A DNA stretch of 64,000 bases from a virus. Taxonomy: Duplodnaviria; Caudoviricetes. Below are positions 1-17,543 of the stretch, piece after piece. The notes under the pieces were generated by a model. The model had not been told where the DNA came from. It searched no databases and saw only the letters and a list, made by a program, of their open reading frames with translations. Each line of letters starts with the position of its first letter. Position 1 is the stretch's first letter. Location: the IMG/VR virus record IMGVR_UViG_3300012979_000003, positions 1-64,000 of that record. One strand, written 5' to 3'. The position numbers and the translations under genes were made by a program.

Positions 1-159
1 ATATTCCTCCAGTAGTCTCTGCACTTTCTTAGAGTGTACTCTAAGCTTAGCTCAGGATTGGCATGTAAAAATGTCATTTCTGAGCATTTTTATTTAGCTT
101 TCCCTGAATTCATCCGATTATTCAATAAGTATTTCTACTTAAGGGGTCCGACTTTCACA
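1..159 (-). mobile_element. Group I self-splicing intron, 5' portion (runs off the left edge of the window)
   Basis: The minus strand shows the conserved core in order: P-like AATTCAGGGAAAGC (110-97), Q-like GCCAATCCTGAGC (62-50), R-like GTGCAGAGACTA (24-13). A P1 helix forms between GGGTTT (164-159) and the IGS GGACCC (149-144) with a U.G wobble. A P2-like hairpin TAAGTAGAAATACTTA follows. Confidence 0.8.
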
Positions 160-197
160 AACCCTCGTCTTAATAGCTGTATAATGACCTAACAGTC

Positions 198-464
198 TTA
201 TTTATCGAAAGGGGTGTTATCTTTTGAGGTAAATGGTTGTTCTATGCCGTTTTTTGCACTATATAATAATTTCCATTTATCATCTTTGTGATAACTTTCG
301 AATTCATCACCATCTTGAGTAAAGACTATTTCGTTATCTTTTGGATTATAATAAACCCCATCCATTTCTGTTGAGCAACATTCCCATCCGCTATCACTTA
401 TCAAGCTTACATTTTTAGGAATGTTATTTTTCTCGATGATTTCACTTAATAGTTCAAACGTCAT
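198..464 (-). CDS. Hypothetical protein with a strong Shine-Dalgarno site
   Basis: 88-aa ORF ending in TAA. AGGAGGT lies at 479-473, just upstream of the ATG. Confidence 0.7.
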   Translation of the reverse strand: MTFELLSEIIEKNNIPKNVSLISDSGWECCSTEMDGVYYNPKDNEIVFTQDGDEFESYHKDDKWKLLYSAKNGIEQPFTSKDNTPFDK

Positions 465-1120
465 TTTAATTTACCTCCTGTTACTTTAAAGTTTTACACC
501 TGTTTATAAATCGAAGGTGTGCACATGACCAGCTTATGGTTTCCTGCACACACCCGCCTTAGTATAGGCTAGTAGTATGAGGACCGATCAAAGTCCTCAT
601 ACTTAGTATTTTACATCTCTTGTGAAGTGAGTGATTGTGTAGTCATCCTGTACACATTTTTCACCTTAGTGCCATCGAACAACTTTCACTCCTTGCATAA
701 AAGCTATCTCCACAAGTTAGATGATATATATTGATTACGCTGTCATTGCAACACATCCTACTGAGTTGGATTTTATGTAGGCTTAACACTCTGATGTTGC
801 AGACTATTTAAGTACCATGACAAATATTGAATATTGCTATTTATTTATCGTCAGTAGACTAGACATCGATCCCCTTGGGATATTTCTGTATTGGCATATA
901 GCACGAACATAAGATGTCATATCCTTTAGGCACATTGGCGCGTATTTTTTACCCTCCCTTTGACACAAAGGTACTTGGGCAAATTGTCAATTCAATTTTT
1001 CTCACTCACACTGCGTTGCGGAATCTGTGACACCTACTTATCTGTCGGTGCAGTCGGTCGTCCTGAGTGTCTGTTGTGAAAGGTGTTTACGTTTAGCATA
1101 ACACCTTGGGTAGTCGGTGA

Positions 1121-1498
1121 TTAGTATCTCCAGGAGTCTTCACCGTAAATCTCACGTTTGCCTTCCGCGATAGCCTTGTCGCGTTCTTCGATGGCTTTGC
1201 GGGAGGCCTCATCGTAAGCCTTGTAGTTACCAGTTGCTTCGAAATCAGCGTCAGCTTTGTTCAGAGATTCGAGGTAAGCCTTTTGAGCTTTTTCTCTAAC
1301 GCGAGCCATGCGAAGAGCCTTAACGGCGTCTTCAGTGCTACTCTTTGATTGACTCAAGCGGCGCTCGATTTCAGCTGTTTCTTTGCGGAGTTTCTGCTCG
1401 GCAAGGTTTTCTTTAGCCTTAGCCATTGCTTCCTGTGAACCGTAGTTCTGTTCTTTCTCCTGATTTTTTACTGCGTCTTCTACATTAAAATTTCCCAT
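1121..1498 (-). CDS. Hypothetical coiled-coil protein
   Basis: 125-aa ORF rich in Ala/Glu/Lys, with an A-rich leader (TTATCAAAAAATTATG). Confidence 0.75.
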   Translation of the reverse strand: MGNFNVEDAVKNQEKEQNYGSQEAMAKAKENLAEQKLRKETAEIERRLSQSKSSTEDAVKALRMARVREKAQKAYLESLNKADADFEATGNYKAYDEASRKAIEERDKAIAEGKREIYGEDSWRY

Positions 1499-1752
1499 AA
1501 TTTTTGATAATTTTTAATTGGTTAATAACTGATTTATTTTCTGTTAGAGCGATATACTCTGAATGGACATTTATCACAATGAGTCATGTCGCAATTTATT
1601 GGGCAGTCGTTTTTAATCAGATTTTCTTCTGATTTAACAACTGGTCCTGTTGTACCTAGCAAATTCATTGTCTTTCCTGTTATAAGGTTTCATTTTTGCG
1701 TGCTTCACCTTTTTAGGGTGTGCTTGTTGCTTACTGTCCCAAGTTCGTTTCA

Positions 1753-2169
1753 TTAGATTCGAATTTTTGGGAGTGTGTCGATGAATTTTATTGCGTAGGT
1801 GTAGCCCATGTGGTCTAGCCATGCACGTTCATCTGCTGTTATGTCGATTAATACCTCTTCGATTGGTATTTCGACATGTCCATCAGCATATGCACGTAAT
1901 GCATTTCTATAAAATTCAGGAGTTTTTGGACTGCCGCACACTTTTTTAAGTGCTTCGATTGCTCTCTGAAATTTTTCACGGACTCTGTATCGTGCAATTC
2001 CAAAACTTCCACTATTTGTGAGTGTAAAGTCTGAATCACTTAACAGCACAGGTGTTGTGTTGGGGGCAATTACTTCTTTAACTGCCAAATCACCTAATGC
2101 TTGTGCAATTTGTTCTTCTGAACAATTTGCATCTACTATAATAAGTAGAATCTTTTTTCCATTAAACAT
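1753..2169 (-). CDS. Hypothetical protein
   Basis: 138-aa ORF preceded by the TTATCAAAATG start motif. Confidence 0.7.
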   Translation of the reverse strand: MFNGKKILLIIVDANCSEEQIAQALGDLAVKEVIAPNTTPVLLSDSDFTLTNSGSFGIARYRVREKFQRAIEALKKVCGSPKTPEFYRNALRAYADGHVEIPIEEVLIDITADERAWLDHMGYTYAIKFIDTLPKIRI

Positions 2170-2183
2170 TTTGATAAAGTTTT

Positions 2184-2342
2184 TTAGTGTTTGTACTTGT
2201 GGTATCTAGCACCACATCGTTTACAATATGTGCGAGTCGTGATTCCGGCTGAATTATTTGCGTTTTTGACTCTTTCTGTTGTCCAGGTGTGACCACGAAT
2301 CGCACATACTACTTTGTTCCATTTTTCTTTCAATGATGACAT
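2184..2342 (-). CDS. Small Zn-finger-like protein (DUF1660-like)
   Basis: Hand-translated 52 aa MSSLKEKWNKVVCAIRGHTW...YCKRCGARYHKYKH, with a C-x3-GH-x-W...CxxC pattern. Confidence 0.55.
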   Translation of the reverse strand: MSSLKEKWNKVVCAIRGHTWTTERVKNANNSAGITTRTYCKRCGARYHKYKH

Positions 2343-2672
2343 TTCGTATAAGTTTTAAGTTAAACAATGCGGACTTACATCTAGTCCTGGGTTAAATTCT
2401 CTACATCTGAGAATGACGATGGGTTTTTACATCTTTTCCTTGACGAATTAGAAAACAGAATAGTTTAATTGTTAGTACTATAGTTTAAAGTCAGTCCATT
2501 ACTGAACGGACTACCTGATTTTTACATCCGCACGATTGCAGACACAAATACGAATATTACAGAATTTCACATTTGTCGCATTCTCTGCTTGGTTCTGCTA
2601 TGCATCTGCTTACGCCCCACAGGTTTGTCATCTTCTGAAGATGCCCCTTTCGGGGCACCCAAAAACACATTA

Positions 2673-3167
2673 TCAATTAACAGAAGCTGAATCTGTCAGC
2701 AATCCTGATGGAATCGGTGCTTCGTCAATCGGCACTGATTTCTTATCAGGTTTTGCTTTGTTTGGCATTGGATCAGGTAGTTTTGGAGTTGAATAACCTT
2801 CTTCATATGCCGTGTAGTATGCAATGTTGGACTCATATATCTGGACAATATCTTCAATACCTAGTTGTAGACCATGGTGTTGTAGGATGTGTCGTAAAGA
2901 TATTTCTGGCATTTTTCGCCATTTTTCAACTGTTTGCATCCACTGAATGTCTTCATTTCTGAAGTCAATTGCTTGTTGAACTGATTCCCAAATGTTTGAG
3001 CTATAGTCCAAATAGTTTGTTGTGTCAACTGGTACATCTATTTGATGGTACTGTTGTAACTCGGCAATTACTTTTGCCTGTTCTCCTACCTTGTGCACGT
3101 TGAACGCAGACAAGGCGACTATGGCCATTACAGCCAAAATTGCTAAAATGTTGTTAAATGCTTTCAT
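2673..3167 (-). CDS. Hypothetical protein with N-terminal signal/TM segment
   Basis: 164-aa ORF with hydrophobic N-terminus ILAILAVMAIVALSA. Confidence 0.7.
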   Translation of the reverse strand: MKAFNNILAILAVMAIVALSAFNVHKVGEQAKVIAELQQYHQIDVPVDTTNYLDYSSNIWESVQQAIDFRNEDIQWMQTVEKWRKMPEISLRHILQHHGLQLGIEDIVQIYESNIAYYTAYEEGYSTPKLPDPMPNKAKPDKKSVPIDEAPIPSGLLTDSASVN

Positions 3168-3189
3168 TTTTCTAAATTGATTTTAGTTT

Positions 3190-3576
3190 TTAATCTGTAA
3201 ATCCGTGATTTTTAAATCTATTTGGTAAAAGTTGGCGTAGTACCCAATCAGTCTCACGCATACATTCTGTGGAATATACTGATGGTAGTTTGCATGGGTC
3301 TGTTTTAATTATAAAACCATGTGCTGATATTTCACGTATTAACATAAAATTTACAGCTCTGTTTAATAATTCTCCAGCTAGGATTGTCGGTTGCGCGTTA
3401 TTTGTGTACGCGTTACGCACATATATTGTGTATCCACTATATCGAACAGTTAGTTTATTTTTTAAGTTTTGTACCCATCTAACCGTTGTCATTGTTTTTG
3501 GTAACTTTTTACCACCCATAATGCTAGCTAGTACAGCTTTTACCAGTAGGTATATACAGTTTTCTTCCTTTGTCAT
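3190..3576 (-). CDS. Hypothetical protein
   Basis: 128-aa ORF in the tightly packed minus-strand array. Confidence 0.6.
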   Translation of the reverse strand: MTKEENCIYLLVKAVLASIMGGKKLPKTMTTVRWVQNLKNKLTVRYSGYTIYVRNAYTNNAQPTILAGELLNRAVNFMLIREISAHGFIIKTDPCKLPSVYSTECMRETDWVLRQLLPNRFKNHGFTD

Positions 3577-3949
3577 TGATTAGTTTGTTTAATCTTTTGA
3601 CAATTTTTACACGTACTTCATGCGGTACTGGTAAGTATGGGCGATGGTTTAACATCGCATTTGCCCACATCCAAATTGAGTCGAATTTAACATATTTTTG
3701 GTTTTCTTCAGAATGCCACGTTGTTGTCATTGTGATAATCTGATTATATCTGCAATTTAATCTATTTACCATTTGCTCGTCTGTTAGCATATAATACAGT
3801 AATACACTGTAATGTTTTGTTAATGCTACTCTTATTGCTTCGCTAAGGGTTTTTGGATCTTTAATACAGTAATGTTTTCCTAAATCTGTTTTTACTCGAC
3901 GTTGGATTCTCCAATGCATGAATGAATTGATTGCACTATTCGGTTTCAT
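3524..3949 (-). CDS. Hypothetical protein (ends in TAG)
   Basis: 141-aa ORF overlapping both neighbours. The terminal codon at 3526-3524 is TAG. Confidence 0.55.
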   Translation of the reverse strand: MKPNSAINSFMHWRIQRRVKTDLGKHYCIKDPKTLSEAIRVALTKHYSVLLYYMLTDEQMVNRLNCRYNQIITMTTTWHSEENQKYVKFDSIWMWANAMLNHRPYLPVPHEVRVKIVKRLNKLINDKGRKLYIPTGKSCTS

Positions 3950-4142
3950 CGTTGTTCTGTTTATCGATTAAGTCTTCTATTTTTTCATCTTGATATTCAG
4001 CATGTGCTGCACACGCTGCAAATATTGCAATCATCAGAGTTACTACAAAGAGTAAAGAACCTGGCTTTGTTGTGTAGCAAAGCCCAAACGTTACGATTGC
4101 TATTGCTAACAATCTTAATAAGAATTTGATTTTCTTTTTCAT
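3936..4142 (-). CDS. Small two-TM membrane protein
   Basis: Start reassigned to MKKKIKFLLRLLAIAIV (ATG at 4142), because the longer ORF runs through the tRNA-like element. Two hydrophobic segments. Confidence 0.6.
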   Translation of the reverse strand: MKKKIKFLLRLLAIAIVTFGLCYTTKPGSLLFVVTLMIAIFAACAAHAEYQDEKIEDLIDKQNNDETE

Positions 4143-4166
4143 ATCACTGAGTTTTGAGTTAGTTTG

Positions 4167-4238
4167 TCGGTCGTCCAGGAATCGAACCTGAATTTTACTA
4201 TGTACATCTCGTATGTTCTGCCATTGAACTAACAACCG
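4167..4238 (-). tRNA. tRNA-like element with an aberrant anticodon arm (identity undetermined)
   Basis: CGGTTGT TA GTTC AATGGCA GAAC A TACGA GATGTACA TAGTA AAAT TCAGG TTCGATT CCTGG ACGACCG A. Acceptor, D and T arms are intact. The anticodon stem is mismatched with an 8-nt loop, and no CCA is encoded. Confidence 0.75.
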
Positions 4239-4409
4239 TAATAATCACACTATTCTCACGAACCGTGTGATGCAGTTAAGTAATCTAAAATCGTATATGA
4301 TAGGAATATTAGAGTATCCAATAAAAATGCACTCTATCTTCACAGACGGAGTGCAATTCAGCAAATCTTACAAACTATAAGACACAATGATTCTTGGTTA
4401 AAAAGGTTT

Positions 4410-4919
4410 TTATTTACCAATCTTCTTTCCTGTCAATCTTTCTAGTTCATTCAAGGCTTTATGCCTGTTTTTGAATGATGTCTGAATAACCATACCATCT
4501 TTATCGATGTTAATGGTCCATTCGTAGGCATATCTACCACATACTGTGATAGTGTTGCCTAATTGGTCAGTTACTGTGAATCTGACTCTGTTTACACAAT
4601 TTGATTTGTGTATTTTATGCTCACGTCTCTTTTGTTTAGGCTGACGTAATGATTCTTCCCATTTTTGCATTATCTTTTTTGCTTCAGATAGTGATACGAC
4701 TTTTCGTGAACGCATTATGTCGGAACCTTCACATTTGACGAATATGTCATTCGAATTAGACTGTTTTATCGCAAAATATAGGTTATTTCTGTATGCGTAT
4801 GTTAAGGTGGTTGCGTTGGTAGCACCATGTAAAACAAAGAATTTGCTTATTTCATTTGCTATTGTTTCATCACCTAGTATTGCTATTTCGAACAATGGAT
4901 TTACTTTTTCGGTTTCCAT
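4410..4919 (-). CDS. Hypothetical protein
   Basis: ORF 4410..4973. The likely start is METEKVNP (ATG at 4919), which reduces overlap with the upstream gene. Confidence 0.6.
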   Translation of the reverse strand: METEKVNPLFEIAILGDETIANEISKFFVLHGATNATTLTYAYRNNLYFAIKQSNSNDIFVKCEGSDIMRSRKVVSLSEAKKIMQKWEESLRQPKQKRREHKIHKSNCVNRVRFTVTDQLGNTITVCGRYAYEWTINIDKDGMVIQTSFKNRHKALNELERLTGKKIGK

Positions 4920-5269
4920 AATGCTATGTTTTCGGTTATAATTCCAATTGGTAACAGTATACACAATATGCATTTAGATAATGTGACGAAATTGTCATTT
5001 ATCTCATTTAGCCATCCCCATATAATAACCAACGCAAAGACAATTGCAAATAAAGCACATATTGCTGCTATTATTAAACAGTTTAGCTGGAAATCATGGT
5101 CAATGCATGATGCTTTGGCTAACACTACATCTGTTAGTATTATTGATGCCATTGCAGACAATATCCATATGACTATCATATAGTCATTGTTGAATATTGG
5201 CCATCCGCTTGTCAGTAGCGTTAGCATGATGCATATACACCATGCTATTTTGTCTAGCTTTTCGTTCAT
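4901..5269 (-). CDS. Membrane protein (3-4 TM)
   Basis: 122-aa ORF with several hydrophobic helices. Confidence 0.65.
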   Translation of the reverse strand: MNEKLDKIAWCICIMLTLLTSGWPIFNNDYMIVIWILSAMASIILTDVVLAKASCIDHDFQLNCLIIAAICALFAIVFALVIIWGWLNEINDNFVTLSKCILCILLPIGIITENIALWKPKK

Positions 5270-5565
5270 AGGTTGTCCTCCTCATCATCAAATGTGAGAT
5301 TGATGTCGCTGAATGTCTCGAATGTTTGGTTTACCGTTATTGGTTTTTCGAGCAGTTCAGCTAGTTGGATGAGGTTGTCATTGTGGTCACCTGCCAGTGC
5401 TATTTTTGCACCGTGCATTCCCATTTCAATCATTGTGTGTTGTTTGCAATCTGATAATTCATTTGCGACGACGCATTTTATTGAATTAATGTTGACAATT
5501 GCTTGTTCTGGTTCGTGATCGTTAAACCATTGTTCTACGAACAAAAAATTTCCAATTCTTTTCAT
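5266..5565 (-). CDS. Hypothetical protein
   Basis: 99-aa ORF with a TTATCAAAATG start and an ATGA overlap with the next gene. Confidence 0.7.
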   Translation of the reverse strand: MKRIGNFLFVEQWFNDHEPEQAIVNINSIKCVVANELSDCKQHTMIEMGMHGAKIALAGDHNDNLIQLAELLEKPITVNQTFETFSDINLTFDDEEDNL

Positions 5566-5855
5566 TTTGATAATGTGTTAAAATGTTAATAAAATACCCA
5601 CTCACTGACTGACATTGCGGTAAGAAAGGAGGTCGGCTTGTCTAGTCGAGTGAGTGGGTCACCTGAGAATAATTTTAATAACTTTATTCCGACATTTTTA
5701 CAACTTCGGATTGTTGTGTAGGTGTTAACACACGAATCAACGTGTGGGAACAATCAAACCCCGTTGTGCGAACACAATATTAGGGCGATTCATAGTGGCT
5801 TTTTTCAAATCATAATGATTTGATACTTTGCCGTCTTTGATAGATTTGTAAATTC

Positions 5856-6005
5856 TCATGACTTTGACTTTATGTTTTTGACGTAGTCTTGGTACGTTTT
5901 ACAGTTTTCTAGCCATTCACCTTCTGTTGTGCATCTTTGAGACCCACAATACATACAGAATTTTTGTTTGAATTCTTTTAATCTATCTCGGGTGATTTTA
6001 TCCAT
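5856..6005 (-). CDS. Small Cys-rich hypothetical protein
   Basis: Hand-translated 49 aa MDKITRDRLKEFKQKFCMYCGSQRCTTEGEWLENCKTY... Confidence 0.45.
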   Translation of the reverse strand: MDKITRDRLKEFKQKFCMYCGSQRCTTEGEWLENCKTYQDYVKNIKSKS

Positions 6006-6166
6006 ATATCAGTGCTTTTAATGCTAATATGAACATCCACCCTAGATATATACCCATAATAATGAGTATTACCGAAAATAATGTATTTGCCAATTTATCC
6101 ATTTTGATAACGTGAATAATTGTACCCCTGCCAGATATTCTCTACGCTGACAGGGGTTGTGTGTCA

Positions 6167-6694
6167 TCACATGTCGGCAAGGTTGTTTATGATGACAGAT
6201 ACTAATCTGCCAAATCCAATACCGTTGCGTTCTTTGCGGTCTTCTTCAGGAACCCAATACAGTGCTTTTGCGATTTGGTCGCAAGCATACATTGAGTTTA
6301 GTATATATTCAAATTCACCATTTTTGAGTGCCTCGATTGTGTCTTGCATTACTTGAAACGAAGCGTGGCTGAATATGTGAAGCTGTCCGTTATTCTTTTT
6401 GAACTGTACGAACTGGTCGTTAGCAATCATGACCTTGTCACTGTTTCGCATCAACATGCACACACATGCATCCATGCGTGCTTCTAATGCACGAATTATT
6501 ACATCTGCAAATGTATCAATAACACCCAGTTCTAATGCCCGAATATCTATTGGTTTTACATCAATATCTTCTGTGAATTTTACACGGAAGAATGTCGAGA
6601 ACTCAGCATATCCGTTTTCTGGATAAACGATTGCTGTTGATTTGAGATTGGTTGATTTGATATCTGCCATCTTTTTCACAACCCCGATTATCAT
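6167..6694 (-). CDS. Hypothetical protein
   Basis: 175-aa ORF. The start may be the second Met (MADIKST). Confidence 0.65.
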   Translation of the reverse strand: MIIGVVKKMADIKSTNLKSTAIVYPENGYAEFSTFFRVKFTEDIDVKPIDIRALELGVIDTFADVIIRALEARMDACVCMLMRNSDKVMIANDQFVQFKKNNGQLHIFSHASFQVMQDTIEALKNGEFEYILNSMYACDQIAKALYWVPEEDRKERNGIGFGRLVSVIINNLADM

Positions 6695-6699
6695 GCTCG

Positions 6700-7520
6700 G
6701 GATAACACACTGTTATAAGTTGTGCGTGTCTTTCCACGCTGCCATCAACCCTTTCATCTCGAACAAGGGTAAGCCTACTATACTTCAGCTTTTACGAAAT
6801 TTGCACATAGTCTCTTCCTAGTGACTAACCAAGTTCTATTTTTACTTCCCAGAGACGCAGAAGGCTGTCTTTCCAAGCTGTCACGGATTACTGTTCTATC
6901 CTAAGTCAACTCAATCTGCATAATACGGTTCTTTTAGAATATTGTTAACCTACCATGATTAACTAAACGAGTGTGAAATATCCTAAGTTTTGTTATTATG
7001 CCTATTAAGATTTTACCGTTACGCGTATTCGTCGTGTTTCATATTTAGGCGATTGCCAAGGGAACGACTGACCCTGTCCGTCCACGCGCAAGGTTTGTTT
7101 GAAGGTTTCAGTTTATCTTACCTACAACTTGACCGTTTCATTGTAACCATCGTACGGACAACCTTTCCCCTCTTTGTTTCGGCACGGTTAAGGGAACCGC
7201 CACATTTCGCCTAATTTTCTTTACCATTTCCATAACGCCCCCTTTCCTTTCGTACTCCAGGGGCTAACTTTAGTTGCAGCTTTGTTTGTTGTTTATAGCA
7301 CATTTCTGTGGTAGGATTTTGTGATACTCAAAATGTGGAAATTTCTCACATTACCTACAATCTTTTTCTACTTATCGCCTACTGCTCTGGCTATCCCTTT
7401 CATCGGGAAGTCTGGTTGATTAGACCAAACCTGACGAGGTTAACCGTCAGGATTGTCACCGCTCTATTATCCTTTTGCCGCACACCCGTGACCAGTGCCA
7501 GGATACACAAAGGTGACTTA
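6700..7520 (-). ncRNA. Candidate large structured non-coding RNA
   Basis: About 820 nt with no minus-strand ORF in the track. Nested long-range helices (7045-7052 with 7207-7214; 7075-7081 with 7154-7160), several local hairpins and a duplicated GRCAGCKTGGAAAGACA motif. Confidence 0.45.
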
Positions 7521-7522
7521 TG

Positions 7523-7747
7523 TCACTCTTTGTCATACATCTCATCGTCAAGTTCTTGCCAACTAGATGCGCCATTTGCCGATGCATCTTGGGGAACTGT
7601 TGTTAATAAGATGTATATGTTTTCGGGGTGTTCGCCCCGCATTGCGAAGAGATATGTATTTGCATGTTCTTCATTATCAAACCCCTCTTTTATCGTGGGG
7701 TTGAAGAAGTTGTGACATACGGCCACGTAGAATTTTTTCGCTTTCAT
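7523..7747 (-). CDS. Hypothetical protein
   Basis: 74-aa ORF with a TTATCAAAATG start. Confidence 0.65.
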   Translation of the reverse strand: MKAKKFYVAVCHNFFNPTIKEGFDNEEHANTYLFAMRGEHPENIYILLTTVPQDASANGASSWQELDDEMYDKE

Positions 7748-7830
7748 TTTGATAATGCGTTTAAACGGATGAATAGGTTACCGCTATATATTAAATAGTG
7801 GCGTTAACGTTAATCCTAGATTGGAACTCC

Positions 7831-7862
7831 AAAAAGGGGTGAGTAGGGTTCCCTACTCACTC
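7831..7862 (-). terminator. Rho-independent terminator overlapping the TAG stop of 7853..8455
   Basis: GAGTGAGTAGGG-AA-CCCTACTCACCC followed by CTTTTT on the minus strand. Confidence 0.7.
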
Positions 7863-8455
7863 ACCTCTTCATCCTCTACGTCGCCGAATAACTCGGCGCG
7901 TACATCGGCCCATGTAATGGGATCGATGTAGTAGTCGGAGTAATCCTCTCCGCGGACGGGAACGTACCACGTTCCTGCCTTGTCTTCGTCCGGCTCATCT
8001 TGAGCCAGACAACGACGCATCATTTCCGCGTCCACAAGGGTGCGGAAATTCTCACCAAGGTCGTCTAAGGCGACCACACTCACTGACGCAACGCACGTCG
8101 GTGGAACTGCTTCCACCGTGTCGTTGCCATCGGCATCACGGACAATTCGCTTCCTATGCTGTATAAGCTTAGGAACGTTGTCGTCCGTGTAGATAACGCC
8201 CTTTCCAAGGGAAACGGCGTTTGTAAGTCTCAGTCGTTTATCGACTGAAACCTCTGCACCATCCTTCGGCATCTGTGCAAGCACAGATTCGAAGAACTCA
8301 CTTTGGGAACCCCAGTTCCCAAGTATCCGAGTGAAGCCACCCTTGGCTTCCTCGGACTTTGAACACTCAACCATTAGGAATTGAGTGCCTCTGGTTGATG
8401 TACGCAGCGTAGCTGCTACTGCGTACAGTTCGACACTTTGTGTTGATTGTCTCAT
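7853..8455 (-). CDS. Hypothetical protein with acidic C-terminus (possible ssDNA-binding protein), first gene of the left arm
   Basis: 200-aa ORF, GC-richer than its surroundings. It ends DVEDEEVSE-TAG inside a terminator hairpin. The SSB idea rests only on the acidic tail. Confidence 0.65.
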   Translation of the reverse strand: MRQSTQSVELYAVAATLRTSTRGTQFLMVECSKSEEAKGGFTRILGNWGSQSEFFESVLAQMPKDGAEVSVDKRLRLTNAVSLGKGVIYTDDNVPKLIQHRKRIVRDADGNDTVEAVPPTCVASVSVVALDDLGENFRTLVDAEMMRRCLAQDEPDEDKAGTWYVPVRGEDYSDYYIDPITWADVRAELFGDVEDEEVSE

Positions 8456-8567
8456 AATAACGAAGTTTTATTGATTAATACTCGAATGTGAAACATTCGG
8501 TTCTCACCGAATGACCGGGGCTTGCCACGGCCATGAGGGTAGGGGGGCCTTGAATGGAGATGGATTC

Positions 8568-8624
8568 GCGCTCTCACAAGTTCTTACAATTTTTTAAAAA
8601 ATAAAATTTTTAGCGCTCTCACAA
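8568..8624. repeat. 12-bp direct repeat GCGCTCTCACAA in the divergent intergenic region
   Basis: Copies at 8568-8579 and 8613-8624, between a G/C-rich patch (8514-8550) and a very AT-rich tract. Confidence 0.8.
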
Positions 8625-8700
8625 ATGCTCTTCAAAAAATTTTTTATAATTTTTGTTAAATTATAGCTGTTAAAAATTTATAAAATGTGACAAATTTTGG

Positions 8701-8724
8701 CAACCCTTTTATACGTGTATCGTT
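8701..8724 (+). promoter_or_regulatory. Putative phage (late) promoter motif WAC-N15/16-CGTT
   Basis: CAAC-N16-CGTT at the start of the rightward arm. The same geometry recurs at 9611, 14027, 24320, 43476 and 46716. Confidence 0.5.
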
Positions 8725-8749
8725 CTGACTATATCAGATTACGTCAGTC

Positions 8750-8905
8750 ATGAGTAAGAAATTAATTGAATACATAGAAGAATATTAGAAACTTCTATAG
8801 TAGGAAAAAGCTAAACCTAAAAAGACATATAATATAGATATTATAGATATAGTACTACCTACTTTAGTAGAAGACTTATTAAAAATTAAACATGAGCAAG
8901 AGTAA
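8750..8905 (+). CDS. 51-aa ORF with three in-frame TAGs (including tandem TAG TAG)
   Basis: MSKKLIEYIEEY(Q)KLL(Q)(Q)EKAKPKK...HEQE-TAA. It overlaps the ATG at 8892. Confidence 0.55.
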
Positions 8906-9098
8906 GTCCCCCAAGATTACAAGATACGGTGATACTGTTAAAATCAACAGTGCGATGTATCAAATTAGAGATGAAGTAAGTAAACGTAGTTGTGAAGGTT
9001 GTGCATTTATTAATCAGTATTGCTGCAAAGACATTACAAACATTTGTACAAATGAACACGTCATCTTCAGTAGAATTAAACCTAACAAAAAGAAATAA
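8892..9098 (+). CDS. Small Cys-containing hypothetical protein
   Basis: 68-aa ORF with CEGCAF...CC...C. Confidence 0.65.
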   Translation: MSKSKSPKITRYGDTVKINSAMYQIRDEVSKRSCEGCAFINQYCCKDITNICTNEHVIFSRIKPNKKK

Positions 9099-10074: not shown

Positions 10075-10450
10075 ATTAGTTAAGTCTGTGCCTAGACGAA
10101 AGATATACTTTGAATATCTACAGTCATTAAATGGCATACTTAACTTATCATACAGGGAATTAGAAGTAATGGCAAAACTGGTAGAGGTTGACGTAAATAC
10201 TGTGGTAAAACCAGGTGACTCAAAGAACGTCATAAACACCCAGGTACGCAAAACGCTGATGAAAGAGTTAGGGTTTACCCCAGACAACCTCTGCCGCCTT
10301 ATTTCTAAATTGAAGAAAATGGGTTATATCAAGCAAGGCTTCGCTGAAGATGAATGGGAAGTAAATAAGATATTGATACCCGAAATAATATCAGACAGAG
10401 TTCAAATAAGTATTGTATTGAAAGTTGATGATGCCGCTGAGAAACACTAA
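10067..10450 (+). CDS. Winged-helix DNA-binding protein (RepL/MarR-like)
   Basis: LSYRELEV...LMKELGFTPDNLCRLISKLKKMGYI is a wHTH pattern. Confidence 0.6.
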   Translation: MNKLVKSVPRRKIYFEYLQSLNGILNLSYRELEVMAKLVEVDVNTVVKPGDSKNVINTQVRKTLMKELGFTPDNLCRLISKLKKMGYIKQGFAEDEWEVNKILIPEIISDRVQISIVLKVDDAAEKH

Positions 10451-15487: not shown

Positions 15488-17543
15488 CTTTAACAAAAAA
15501 ATAAAAAATTCAGATAAGTTCAGATAGAGTGCCCTGACTTTCATAAGTACAGGGCATTACTGTTCATACCCACCTGGATCTACTGAGTACTTTCAGTTTT
15601 GGGATGAAGAGAAGCGTAGATGCTTAGACGGTTATACTGCTGATGATGGAGATTACATCACAGGGTATAACTATTTTTATTTAAACTATTGCCCAATCGA
15701 CCGTATCGTATATGAAGAAGTAACCGATAGATTTGGTGTAACCAAATAGGTACGTAAGAAGAAGTTATTCTTCCCAGACTTCTATGATTACGACTATTAC
15801 TTTTATTGGGCAGTATAGGAAGCAGAAGATAACGGTAAACACATGTGTGTACTTAAGTCACGACGCAAAGGTTATTCTTTTAAGTGTGGATCAATGTGTT
15901 GTCGTAACTATTACTTTATTCCAAATTCGAAATCATACGTATACGTAAGTAATAAGCAATATCTTACTGAAGACGGTATATTGAATAAAGCTTGGGCATA
16001 TTTGGACTTCATTGACAAGCATACAGCATGGGGTAAAAAGCGTCAAGTGTTTGATCAAATGATGCACAAACGTGCGTCATTCTTAGTATCAGATGAGTTC
16101 GGTAATAAGATTGAAACTGGTTATAAATCTGAGATAATCGGCGTATCCTTGAAGGATAATCCTGGTAGTGTGCGTGGTAAAGCAGGTAAACTAATCTTAT
16201 TTGAGGAGGCTGGTTCATTTCCTGAGTTAGCTGCCGCTTGGCAAGTAGCTAGACCGTCTGTAGAACAAGATGGTATCGCATATGGTTTGATGTTGGCATT
16301 TGGTACTGGGGGTGATGAAGGTAGTAGTTTTACTTCATTAAAAGATATGTTCTATAACCCTAAAGGTTATAACTGTTTAGAGTTTGAAAACATATGGGAT
16401 GAGGCTGTAGAACAAGGTAGTAAATGCGGATTCTTCATACCGTAGTTTACTAATTTGGATGTTCGCGATAACGACAGCAAACGCTTGTATATGGACGAAG
16501 ACGGTAATACATTGCACAAAAAAGCAATGGATTACGTACTATCCTTACGTAAGGAAGTAATTGAAAACGCGACCAGTCAATAGGCTGTAGATAGGTATGT
16601 TGCAGAGCAGCCCATTACGCCACGTGAAGCCTGTCTTGAATTTACCGGTAACATCTTCCCAAAGAAGGAATTACAGAATCATTTGGCATTCATTCGTACA
16701 CACAAAAATGTGTAGGCACACAAACAGATTGGTGATTTAGTATTCGACCACGATGGTAACATACAATGGGAAATAAAGAAACATGGTGATATTACTAGGT
16801 ACCCGTTGAACAAAAATGATGACCCTACTGGAGCAATTGTGATATGGGAGCACCCAGTCAAAGATGCACCACACGGGTTGTATATTGCCGGAATTGACTC
16901 GTACGACTATGACCAATCTGGTACCAATTCACTAGGTAGCTGCATTATCTATAAACGTTTCTAGAACTTTGAAGAGTATTATGACTTACCAGTAGCAGAG
17001 TATACAGGCCGTCCTGCAACCGCTGAGATATTCTACGAAAACATACGCAAGTTGCTTACATATTATAATGCAACAGCGATGTATGAAAATCAGAATAAAG
17101 GTCTATTCACATACATGACACAGAAGCATTGTGACTACTTACTTGCGGATCAGCCTGATATATTGGCAGACATTGTTGGTAATTCTACAGTACAGCGTAA
17201 GAAGGGTTGTCATATGAATAAGTAGATTAAAGCGTGGGGAGAAGGTAAGATTAAAGACTGGTTAAATGAAGAATATGCACCTGGTAAAAAGAACCTTACA
17301 AAGATACTTTCTGAACCATTATTGGAAGAATTAATAAGCTATAATGACTAGGGAAACTTCGACCGCGTAATGGCTTTTATGCAGATTATAATATACCGTG
17401 AACAACTTTTTAACGTTGTTGTCAAATAGCGCGAGGAAGTCAATAAATCACGTTTGTTGTTTGATGGGCCTATCTTTACCAATGAGTGGTTTAATGATTC
17501 TTCGTATGATACAAATGATAATATACCGGTATTTACATTTTAA
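15480..17543 (+). CDS. terL: Terminase large subunit (687 aa, 10 in-frame TAGs)
   Basis: Walker A-like LKSRRKGYS, Walker B LILFEEAG, FGTGG, and nuclease motifs YIAGIDSYD and GNFDRV. The frame is continuous from ATG 15480 to TAA 17543 when TAG is read through. Confidence 0.93.

Follow-up and report, generated by a model that had tools for sequence, protein, structure and literature searches.

A conserved three-hairpin leader downstream of a hatchet ribozyme, and a separate tRNA-like element, in a crAss-like phage

The window analysed here comprises the first 64,000 nucleotides (nt) of a single contig of 100,253 base pairs (bp), which is the whole of the IMG/VR virus record IMGVR_UViG_3300012979_000003, and it belongs to a TAG-recoding crAss-like phage of the gut. 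Its nucleotide matches are crAss-like phages of the Suoliviridae, its near relatives come from ruminant and other gut assemblies, and reading TAG as sense, as in the plus-strand late genes, raises the open reading frame (ORF) cover of the whole genome from 75% to 92%. The first 9 kb of the window hold small minus-strand genes without family assignment. Among these, on the minus strand, a hatchet self-cleaving ribozyme stands after a gene for a protein of 164 amino acids (aa), and ~70 nt beyond the ribozyme begins a 5′ leader of ~100 nt that runs up to a gene for a 52-aa protein (Table 1). The leader consists of a hairpin (hp0), a strand containing CAUC, two further hairpins (hp1 and hp2) joined by a linker, and an A/U-rich tail, the distance from the end of hp2 to the ATG being 28 nt. 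A tRNA-like element lies on the same strand. The original prediction for this locus, made from the letters of the window, was that a single loop, AGAUGUA, is displayed on hp1, on hp2 and on the tRNA-like scaffold. The two minus-strand hairpins at 2414-2396 and 2387-2371 carry this loop letter for letter, and the comparative analysis below identifies the leader around them as an uncatalogued RNA element, found only in this lineage.

Table 1. Positions of the leader, the ribozyme, the tRNA-like element and other features in the window
Feature	Position in window	Strand	Basis or remark
AGATGTA-containing copy AGATGTAAAA	609-618	−	predicted helix strand in conserved non-coding region
52-aa gene, zinc-ribbon-like	2184-2342	−	77-94% identity among relatives; C-x4-H ... 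C-x2-C motif
A/U-rich tail GCAUUGUUUAACUUAAAACUUAUACGAA, 28 nt, up to the start codon	2343-2370	−	GCAUUGU and UAA invariant
hp2, GGACU-AGAUGUA-AGUCC	2371-2387	−	covarying stem, invariant loop core
Linker UUAACCCA	2388-2395	−	invariant among nine sequences
hp1, AUUCUC-AGAUGUA-GAGAAU	2396-2414	−	read directly; covarying stem
Conserved single strand UAAAAACCCAUCGUC, 15 nt	2415-2429	−	AAAACCCAUC and the next UC invariant
hp0, 4-bp stem CGUC/GAUG, conserved 8-nt loop AAGGAAAA	2430-2445	−	pairs in nine of nine sequences
Variable spacer	2446-2492	−	length and sequence differ among relatives
Post-hatchet hairpin AGUCC-GUUCAGUAAU-GGACU, then conserved UUUAAACUAUAG	2493-2512	−	read directly
Hatchet self-cleaving ribozyme	2513-2642	−	Rfam RF02678, full-length model match
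P0 hairpin UGCCCC-GAAA-GGGGCA	2642-2657	−	read directly; just 5′ of the hatchet cleavage site
tRNA-like element, central arm UACGA-GAUGUACA-UAGUA	4167-4238	−	ARAGORN 'tRNA-???'; Rfam tRNA, 44 bits
Hairpin AUCACAC-GG-UUC-GUGA-GAA-UA-GUGUGAU	4244-4271	−	ends 5 nt before the 5′ end of the tRNA-like element
Suppressor tRNA with CTA anticodon	14390-14464		ARAGORN label 'Pyl'

Contigs of relatives were obtained through the upstream 164-aa and downstream 52-aa proteins from 10 further assemblies. The leader alignment, from TCAAGG to the start codon, holds nine distinct sequences, namely the window and eight further relatives; contigs L049 and L050 stop short of the leader and contribute no sequence, and a search of IMG/VR with both flanking proteins gave no relatives. 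Across these nine sequences the leader is ~92% identical, whereas identity of the adjacent 164-aa protein goes down to 56%. Compensatory stem changes, of the kind the original prediction envisaged in relatives, were found: in hp1 and hp2, both partners changed in 5 of 13 pairs (0-1 in slid controls), and for all three hairpins together 94.7% of cells are paired and seven pairs changed on both sides, against the same 0-1. The stem of hp0 (CRUC/GAYG) is 100% paired with two pairs changed on both sides, pair 10-24 being A-U, G-C or G.U and pair 9-25 being C-G or G.U; it replaced the pairing that RNAalifold initially gave, GAUG at 2433-2430 with CGUC at 2418-2415, which fails in two of the nine sequences. 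The base of the hp1 stem changes from A-U to G-C in the relative L012, and its closing pair is U.G in three sequences. The hp2 stem reads GGAUU/AAUCC in L016 and L046 and GAGUC/GACUU in L017, and four of its pairs change on both sides.

Within these changing stems the loop core GAUGU is invariant in both hp1 and hp2, with A or U as the first loop letter and A or G as the last. Most relatives have UGAUGUA or UGAUGUG in hp1, which gives a seventh pair and hence a 7-bp stem with a GAUGU pentaloop, and the AGAUGUA of the window's hp1 is the minority form. Contigs of four runs showed near relatives only, in which the sole leader change is A to U in the hp1 loop. Covariation of the stems around a fixed GAUGU is what a loop recognised in a sequence-specific way would be expected to show, so that the protein-binding motif of the original prediction is a reasonable reading of the two hairpins as an operator, although it is GAUGU and not the full AGAUGUA that is invariant. 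The single strands AAAACCCAUC, UUAACCCAG and GCAUUGU are likewise invariant, and within UAAAAACCCAUCGUC both CAUC (2421-2418) and an overlapping CGUC (2418-2415) complement the loop sequence GAUG.

Taken from one genome, the twin loops are only suggestive, since a nearby pair of hairpins with identical loops (within 45 nt, stems of at least 5 bp, 7-nt loops, both strands counted) occurs once in the 100-kb genome, and 5 of 60 Markov shuffles also contain one or more; conservation settles the matter. Hairpins with an N-GATGT-N loop number four in 100 kb against ~1.9 expected per pentamer. The heptamer AGATGTA itself is in excess over shuffles (22 copies in the window against 12.9 ± 3.7), but it falls mostly on the sense strand of coding sequence. 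A search with a covariance model recovers the leader once per genome, each time before the 52-aa gene; this genome and the collected loci contain no second copy, and three other Suoliviridae (crAss) genomes contain none. Pattern scans for the leader in IMG/VR, JGI metagenomes and GTDB genomes gave chance matches in coding DNA only, and a pattern of three AGATGTA at 26-nt spacing, which is exactly the spacing of the three copies in the leader, met unrelated giant-virus contigs only in IMG/VR.

The further copies that had been cited as loop displays do not have that form. AGATGTA is present at 2434-2428 and at 618-612, but as a strand of a covarying stem and of a predicted helix. The first of these overlaps the end of the hp0 loop and the 3′ strand of its stem, and is replaced by GACGC, GACGA or GACTT in L012, L013 and L016. 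The second is invariant, and since RNAalifold pairs its AGAUG with CAUCU ~130 nt upstream, it is probably not displayed in a loop. The copy near 2530, GGATGTAAAA (2529-2520), is the conserved 3′ core strand of the hatchet. A sponge, also part of the proposal, is at odds with one leader copy per genome and two such hairpins in that leader, and a CsrA/RsmA-type sponge or leader was rejected, as it needs multiple GGA loops and many sites whereas this leader has two GAUGU hairpins. A shared loop displayed on several scaffolds is therefore not supported. The invariant copy at 618 lies in a region (465-1120, minus strand) of ~630 nt that is ORF-free and keeps 80-96% identity in relatives, although their proteins have diverged much further. 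The region has no Rfam match, RNAalifold predicts long-range helices in it with a few compensatory pairs, and it is a candidate large phage non-coding RNA.

The hatchet upstream of the leader scores 82.1 bits against RF02678 (gathering score 51) over model positions 1-133 of 133, with P1-P4 and the conserved core present. P0 hairpins occur in ~90% of hatchets (PMC4604424), and the window's ribozyme resembles the family both in its full model match and in having P0 a few nt 5′ of the cut; relatives keep a hairpin at the P0 position with differing sequences. Its core reads GAUGUAAAAAUCAGG against the consensus GACGUUAAAAUCAGG, with nothing unusual otherwise, and ribozyme and P0 are ordinary family members for which self-cleavage, to 2′,3′-cyclic phosphate and 5′-OH ends, is predicted. 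Homologous hatchets are found in at least eight reference crAss genomes, after a gene of ~155 aa. The twin hairpins are missing after the hatchets of these genomes, which represent other crAss genera, and are therefore not part of the ribozyme. In a blastn search with the leader against phage records the hatchet alone matched, and an Rfam 15 scan of window positions 1-9000 returned only the hatchet, a group I intron and a tRNA, with the leader (2343-2453) unmatched at E ≤ 1. A pistol-like ribozyme, a second hatchet-like ribozyme and a cloverleaf without acceptor stem were each ruled out for the leader on loop and spacer geometry.

Directly after the ribozyme, relatives have a longer hairpin at the site of the post-hatchet hairpin. 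A sigma-70-promoter-like TTGACA-N16-19-TAAAAC lies within and after it in L011 (4640-4700) and L012 (4660-4720), and the same arrangement is seen just after the hatchet in the reference loci L001 and L006-L008. The window, L018 and L044 have a shortened post-hatchet hairpin without this promoter-like sequence. The unverified phage scaffold MT835863.1 further holds a RAGATH-9 RNA (95.7 bits, L001:1-142, minus strand) ~1.4 kb downstream of its hatchet.

The inverted repeats of the leader could in principle act as DNA, as operators or as extruded hairpin promoters for a virion RNA polymerase or a repressor. The element does lie upstream of an early-type gene block, and single-stranded DNA serves the virion RNA polymerase of crAss phage as a template in vitro, while the early promoters are unknown (bioRxiv 10.1101/2020.03.07.982082). 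However, double-strand operators keep their half-sites and vary the spacer, the opposite of the pattern found here, and the element occurs once per genome, with no common motif having been found upstream of early transcripts (bioRxiv 10.1101/2020.03.07.982082). The G.U pairs are found on the sense strand only (the closing U.G of hp1 in three sequences, hp2 of L017, and hp0), where each corresponds to an A.C mismatch on the template strand, which favours an RNA of the gene's strand and leaves a DNA-level signal very improbable.

The AUG within each loop raises a different reading, in which the AUG and an immediate stop form start-stop mini-ORFs; ribosomes taken up and let go at these would tune initiation at the start codon 28-55 nt downstream. 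In the window hp1 reads AUG-UAG and hp2 AUG-UAA; AUG-UAG is present in hp1 of six of the nine sequences, and in hp2 the codon after AUG is a stop throughout, being UAA, UGA or UAG across three lineages. Given purines at the next two positions, though, three of the four combinations are stops anyway, and three sequences read AUG-UGG-AGA-AUU-UAA in hp1. An AUG in the 5-7-nt loop of a stable hairpin is moreover a poor initiation site, and UAG is read as sense in the late genes of this phage. We regard such mini-ORFs as highly unlikely.

A cis-acting RNA of the 5′ untranslated region is indicated by the covarying stems with their fixed loops, by a lone copy at constant distance from the start codon, and by conservation above that of the flanking genes. 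The leader would thus act as a cis-regulatory RNA on the gene that comes first behind the ribozyme cut, governing its translation or stability, with the loops of hp1 and hp2 as the recognition determinants. The most likely binder would be a factor specific for these loops, which would contact the two sites 26 nt apart and is probably an RNA-binding protein, either dimeric or with two binding sites. The basic 52-aa product is one candidate, and docking of the loops on the invariant CAUC/CGUC strand may help. Loop-specific RNA operator hairpins are a familiar kind of element, as in the coat-protein operators of MS2 and PP7, the boxB-N pairs of lambda and P22, and the twin GGA hairpins bound by CsrA dimers. 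The leader is like these in its changeable short stems, fixed loops and 5′ position near a start codon, and like the targets of CsrA-type dimers in having two sites ~26 nt apart. However, GAUGU lacks the GGA, the GNRA-like pentaloop and the bulged A of these systems, and membership of any of these families is not claimed. The hairpin-plus-short-leader cassettes of T4-type phages (PeSL) share the order of gene, structured RNA, hairpin, ~25-30-nt leader and next gene, but the twin identical loops and invariant single strands of the present leader exceed a plain terminator hairpin. The leader is therefore best described as a small, lineage-specific, uncatalogued RNA of a known general kind.

The complementarity between loops and strand also allows for a fold made of RNA alone, in which both GAUG loops dock on the CAUC/CGUC strand 5′ of hp1 and no dedicated protein is involved. 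Its layout would be an H-type pseudoknot: CAUC, 3 nt, the 5′ strand of hp1, 1 nt, GAUG, 2 nt and the 3′ strand of hp1. Such a knot would shield the new 5′ end from exonucleases, or hold or release the A/U-rich ribosome landing site. CAUC and the overlapping CRUC are invariant or purine-conserved and complementary to both loops (100% paired), the strand reads CAUCAUC, with two overlapping perfect complements, in L013 and L017, and GAUG is again paired with CAUC in hp0 and in the helix predicted around 618. Two-hairpin exonuclease-stopping knots are moreover known from plant viruses (PMC6546385). The invariance of the CAUC and loop columns nevertheless means that no covariation stands behind the pairing, a 4-mer complement is expected in a 15-nt strand by chance in ~5% of cases, the second contact is broken by CCUC in L012, and the contacts, which have one C in common, cannot form in full together.

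A described precedent is coremin/xrRNA, the two-hairpin exonuclease-stalling motif of plant RNA viruses, which has a first hairpin of 3-5 bp with a YGAD tetraloop, a conserved 10-nt spacer and a second hairpin with a free loop (PMC6546385). The leader has a small hairpin, a conserved A-rich spacer (GUUAAACUAC in coremin, UAAAAACCCAUC in the leader) and a second covarying hairpin, and could likewise protect the new 5′ end. It departs from the coremin definition, and a coremin-type xrRNA was rejected, in that hp0 has an 8-nt loop (AAGGAAAA), the spacer is 15 nt and the downstream loops are invariant. All told, we consider the protein-free fold unlikely.

ARAGORN reports the tRNA-like element as 'tRNA-???' with a four-letter anticodon, 'tgta', and the Rfam tRNA alignment places 12 nt in the central arm where the model has 11. 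AGATGTA (4209-4203) was originally read there as an anticodon loop closed as G-AGATGTA-C, but the next pair would be C-A; the arm instead has a G.A mismatch in its stem and an 8-nt loop, GAUGUACA, and AGATGTA spans the stem end and the loop. The relatives have the element at the same place, ~24 nt ahead of the following gene and behind a conserved GNRA hairpin. In eight of them pairing reaches 99.2% in the acceptor, D and T helices, where 9 of 16 pairs show compensatory change. The central arm, in contrast, varies from 11 to 35 nt with unrelated sequence between lineages (66-90 nt for the whole element), and GAGAUGUACA occurs in it only in the window and its closest relative L044. In L017 the arm carries GAAGUACA on a different stem, with the GAUGU core broken, while both leader hairpins of L017 keep GAUGU. 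The loop is thus conserved in relatives within the leader but not within the tRNA-like arm, and the proposed graft onto a tRNA does not hold. Only the acceptor, D and T arms of the element appear, from these alignments, to be under selection.

These comparisons bear directly on the original model, in which one factor reads AGAUGUA on the two hairpins and on the tRNA-like scaffold as a decoy or carrier. It would explain why the heptamer is found in all three places in the window and in L044, a coincidence that is rare a priori (~0.2-0.3% for one given 17-nt segment). Yet five other lineages have unrelated central arms while keeping both leader hairpins, GAAGUACA in L017 breaks the only invariant part of the hairpin loops, the heptamer is not a closed 7-nt loop in the tRNA-like element, and no sponge-like multiplicity of sites is seen. 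The comparative data disfavour this model, which we hold to be most unlikely, and we infer that AGAUGUA in the central arm is probably a coincidence and that the element is independent of the leader.

A decoding tRNA was rejected as well. The acceptor, D and T arms of a cloverleaf are present, but the 5-bp anticodon stem and 7-nt loop with U33 and a purine at 37 are lacking, and the anticodon arm is not conserved among orthologues. Quadruplet decoding, as by a frameshift-suppressor tRNA serving genes that need a +1 shift at UACA, fared no better: TACA has three candidate junctions, all of them ordinary gene junctions, while quadruplets in general have 1.35 on average and up to 12. A blastn search with the element against phage records gave no match, and a pattern search with the tRNA 5′ half found ordinary tRNA-Phe genes in unrelated contigs only. 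We propose that the element would be a non-decoding processing signal, cut by RNase P and tRNA 3′-end enzymes, which would separate cistrons much as the hatchet does. tRNA punctuation and RNase P minihelix substrates are processing signals of this type, and plant mitochondrial t-elements are tRNA-like processing signals in messenger RNAs (PMC1920247). The phage element resembles them in its kept acceptor-T-D architecture, its dispensable anticodon arm and its position between cistrons, as well as in the presence of several elements per genome, including an acceptor-T minihelix; it differs in its carrier, a phage early operon whose host would be Bacteroidales, and in that its cleavage is predicted only.

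Further T-arm or acceptor-T minihelix hairpins lie on the minus strand 22-33 nt before other early-gene starts, at L047:8240-8290, 17000-17050 and 10340-10400 (genome 88563, 97329 and ~90670). One has an acceptor-like stem with the T arm GGGAG-UUCAAGU-CUCCC, another is an 11-bp acceptor-T minihelix, CAUGGAGAGGG-UUCGACU-CCCUCUCUGUG, and in another a T arm is succeeded by a strand pairing ~270 nt upstream. A few nt 5′ of the tRNA-like element, and of the hatchets of other crAss genera (L001 and L005-L008, at about 1460-1500), stand hairpins that have a small internal loop and an inner stem of 2-4 bp capped by a GUGA or GCGA tetraloop. The L017 version of the hairpin at 4244-4271 covaries and has a GCGA loop, and the same kind of 3′-end hairpin seems to precede either type of cleavage module. 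At the contig ends, a group I intron (window 1-170 with L047:18700-19954, minus strand) interrupts a tmRNA-like gene whose tag is GKTFVTDYTCIAA followed by a stop and whose tRNA-like domain terminates in ACCA; ARAGORN labels intron-free relatives of this gene as permuted tmRNA.

Taken together, the whole explanation is that of a hatchet which with its P0 would cut the transcript after the 164-aa gene, a three-hairpin leader that would act in cis on the gene behind the cut, and a tRNA-like element that would serve as an independent processing signal. On the comparative sequence evidence we give it a probability of about one half. Several observations weigh against it. The leader helices are short, its single-sequence fold is no more stable than shuffles (z = -0.6), and the nine leader sequences are closely related, so that many positions that look invariant may simply be young. 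GATGT shows a mild excess in the sense intergenic DNA of the early arms (19 against 8.6 in zero-order or 14.7 in Markov expectation), and there is a second intergenic cluster near 90.9 kb (minus strand; genome 90639-90925, L047:10340-10626). That cluster includes GAUGAUGUAUGAAAC twice, once within the loop of an 8-bp hairpin, as well as a hairpin that reads UAAGUU-UGAUGUG-AACUUA, and the single-sequence fold energy of the region is no better than that of shuffles. The window and L044 share a GA(U/A)GUACA loop on different stems with the otherwise distant L017, which indicates that the central arm of the tRNA-like element is not pure drift in every lineage. Finally, an RNA-binding domain could not be assigned to the 52-aa protein or its neighbours. 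The 52-aa protein is predicted to form one helix and a beta hairpin (predicted local distance difference test score of 74); it has no Pfam family and only weak PHROG matches of unknown function, Foldseek gave no match at E ≤ 0.001, and its atlas neighbours were uninformative.

It is also conceivable, if improbable, that the leader represents a new class of self-contained RNA, a double-docked knot in which a CAUC-R-UC strand would hold both GAUG loops as a 5′-end-protecting or switchable gate, or else that it is the operator of the 52-aa protein. On the operator reading, an orphan family of 52-aa zinc-ribbon proteins would gain an RNA-binding function.

Structured RNAs crowd the early arms of crAss-like phages, almost all of them without an assigned role, and the present case separates kin from look-alikes among them. 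A leader motif supported by covariation and placed directly downstream of a hatchet offers a system, with two fixed loops and one small conserved gene, for following the fate of a natural hatchet 3′ product. The clean comparative evidence at the tRNA-like element indicates that a phage 'tRNA' with an intact elbow and acceptor can be selected without anticodon function, and annotations should avoid labelling such elements decoding or suppressor tRNAs. It also lends support to the view that, in these phages, a ribozyme and a tRNA-like element can stand in for each other as separators of cistrons.

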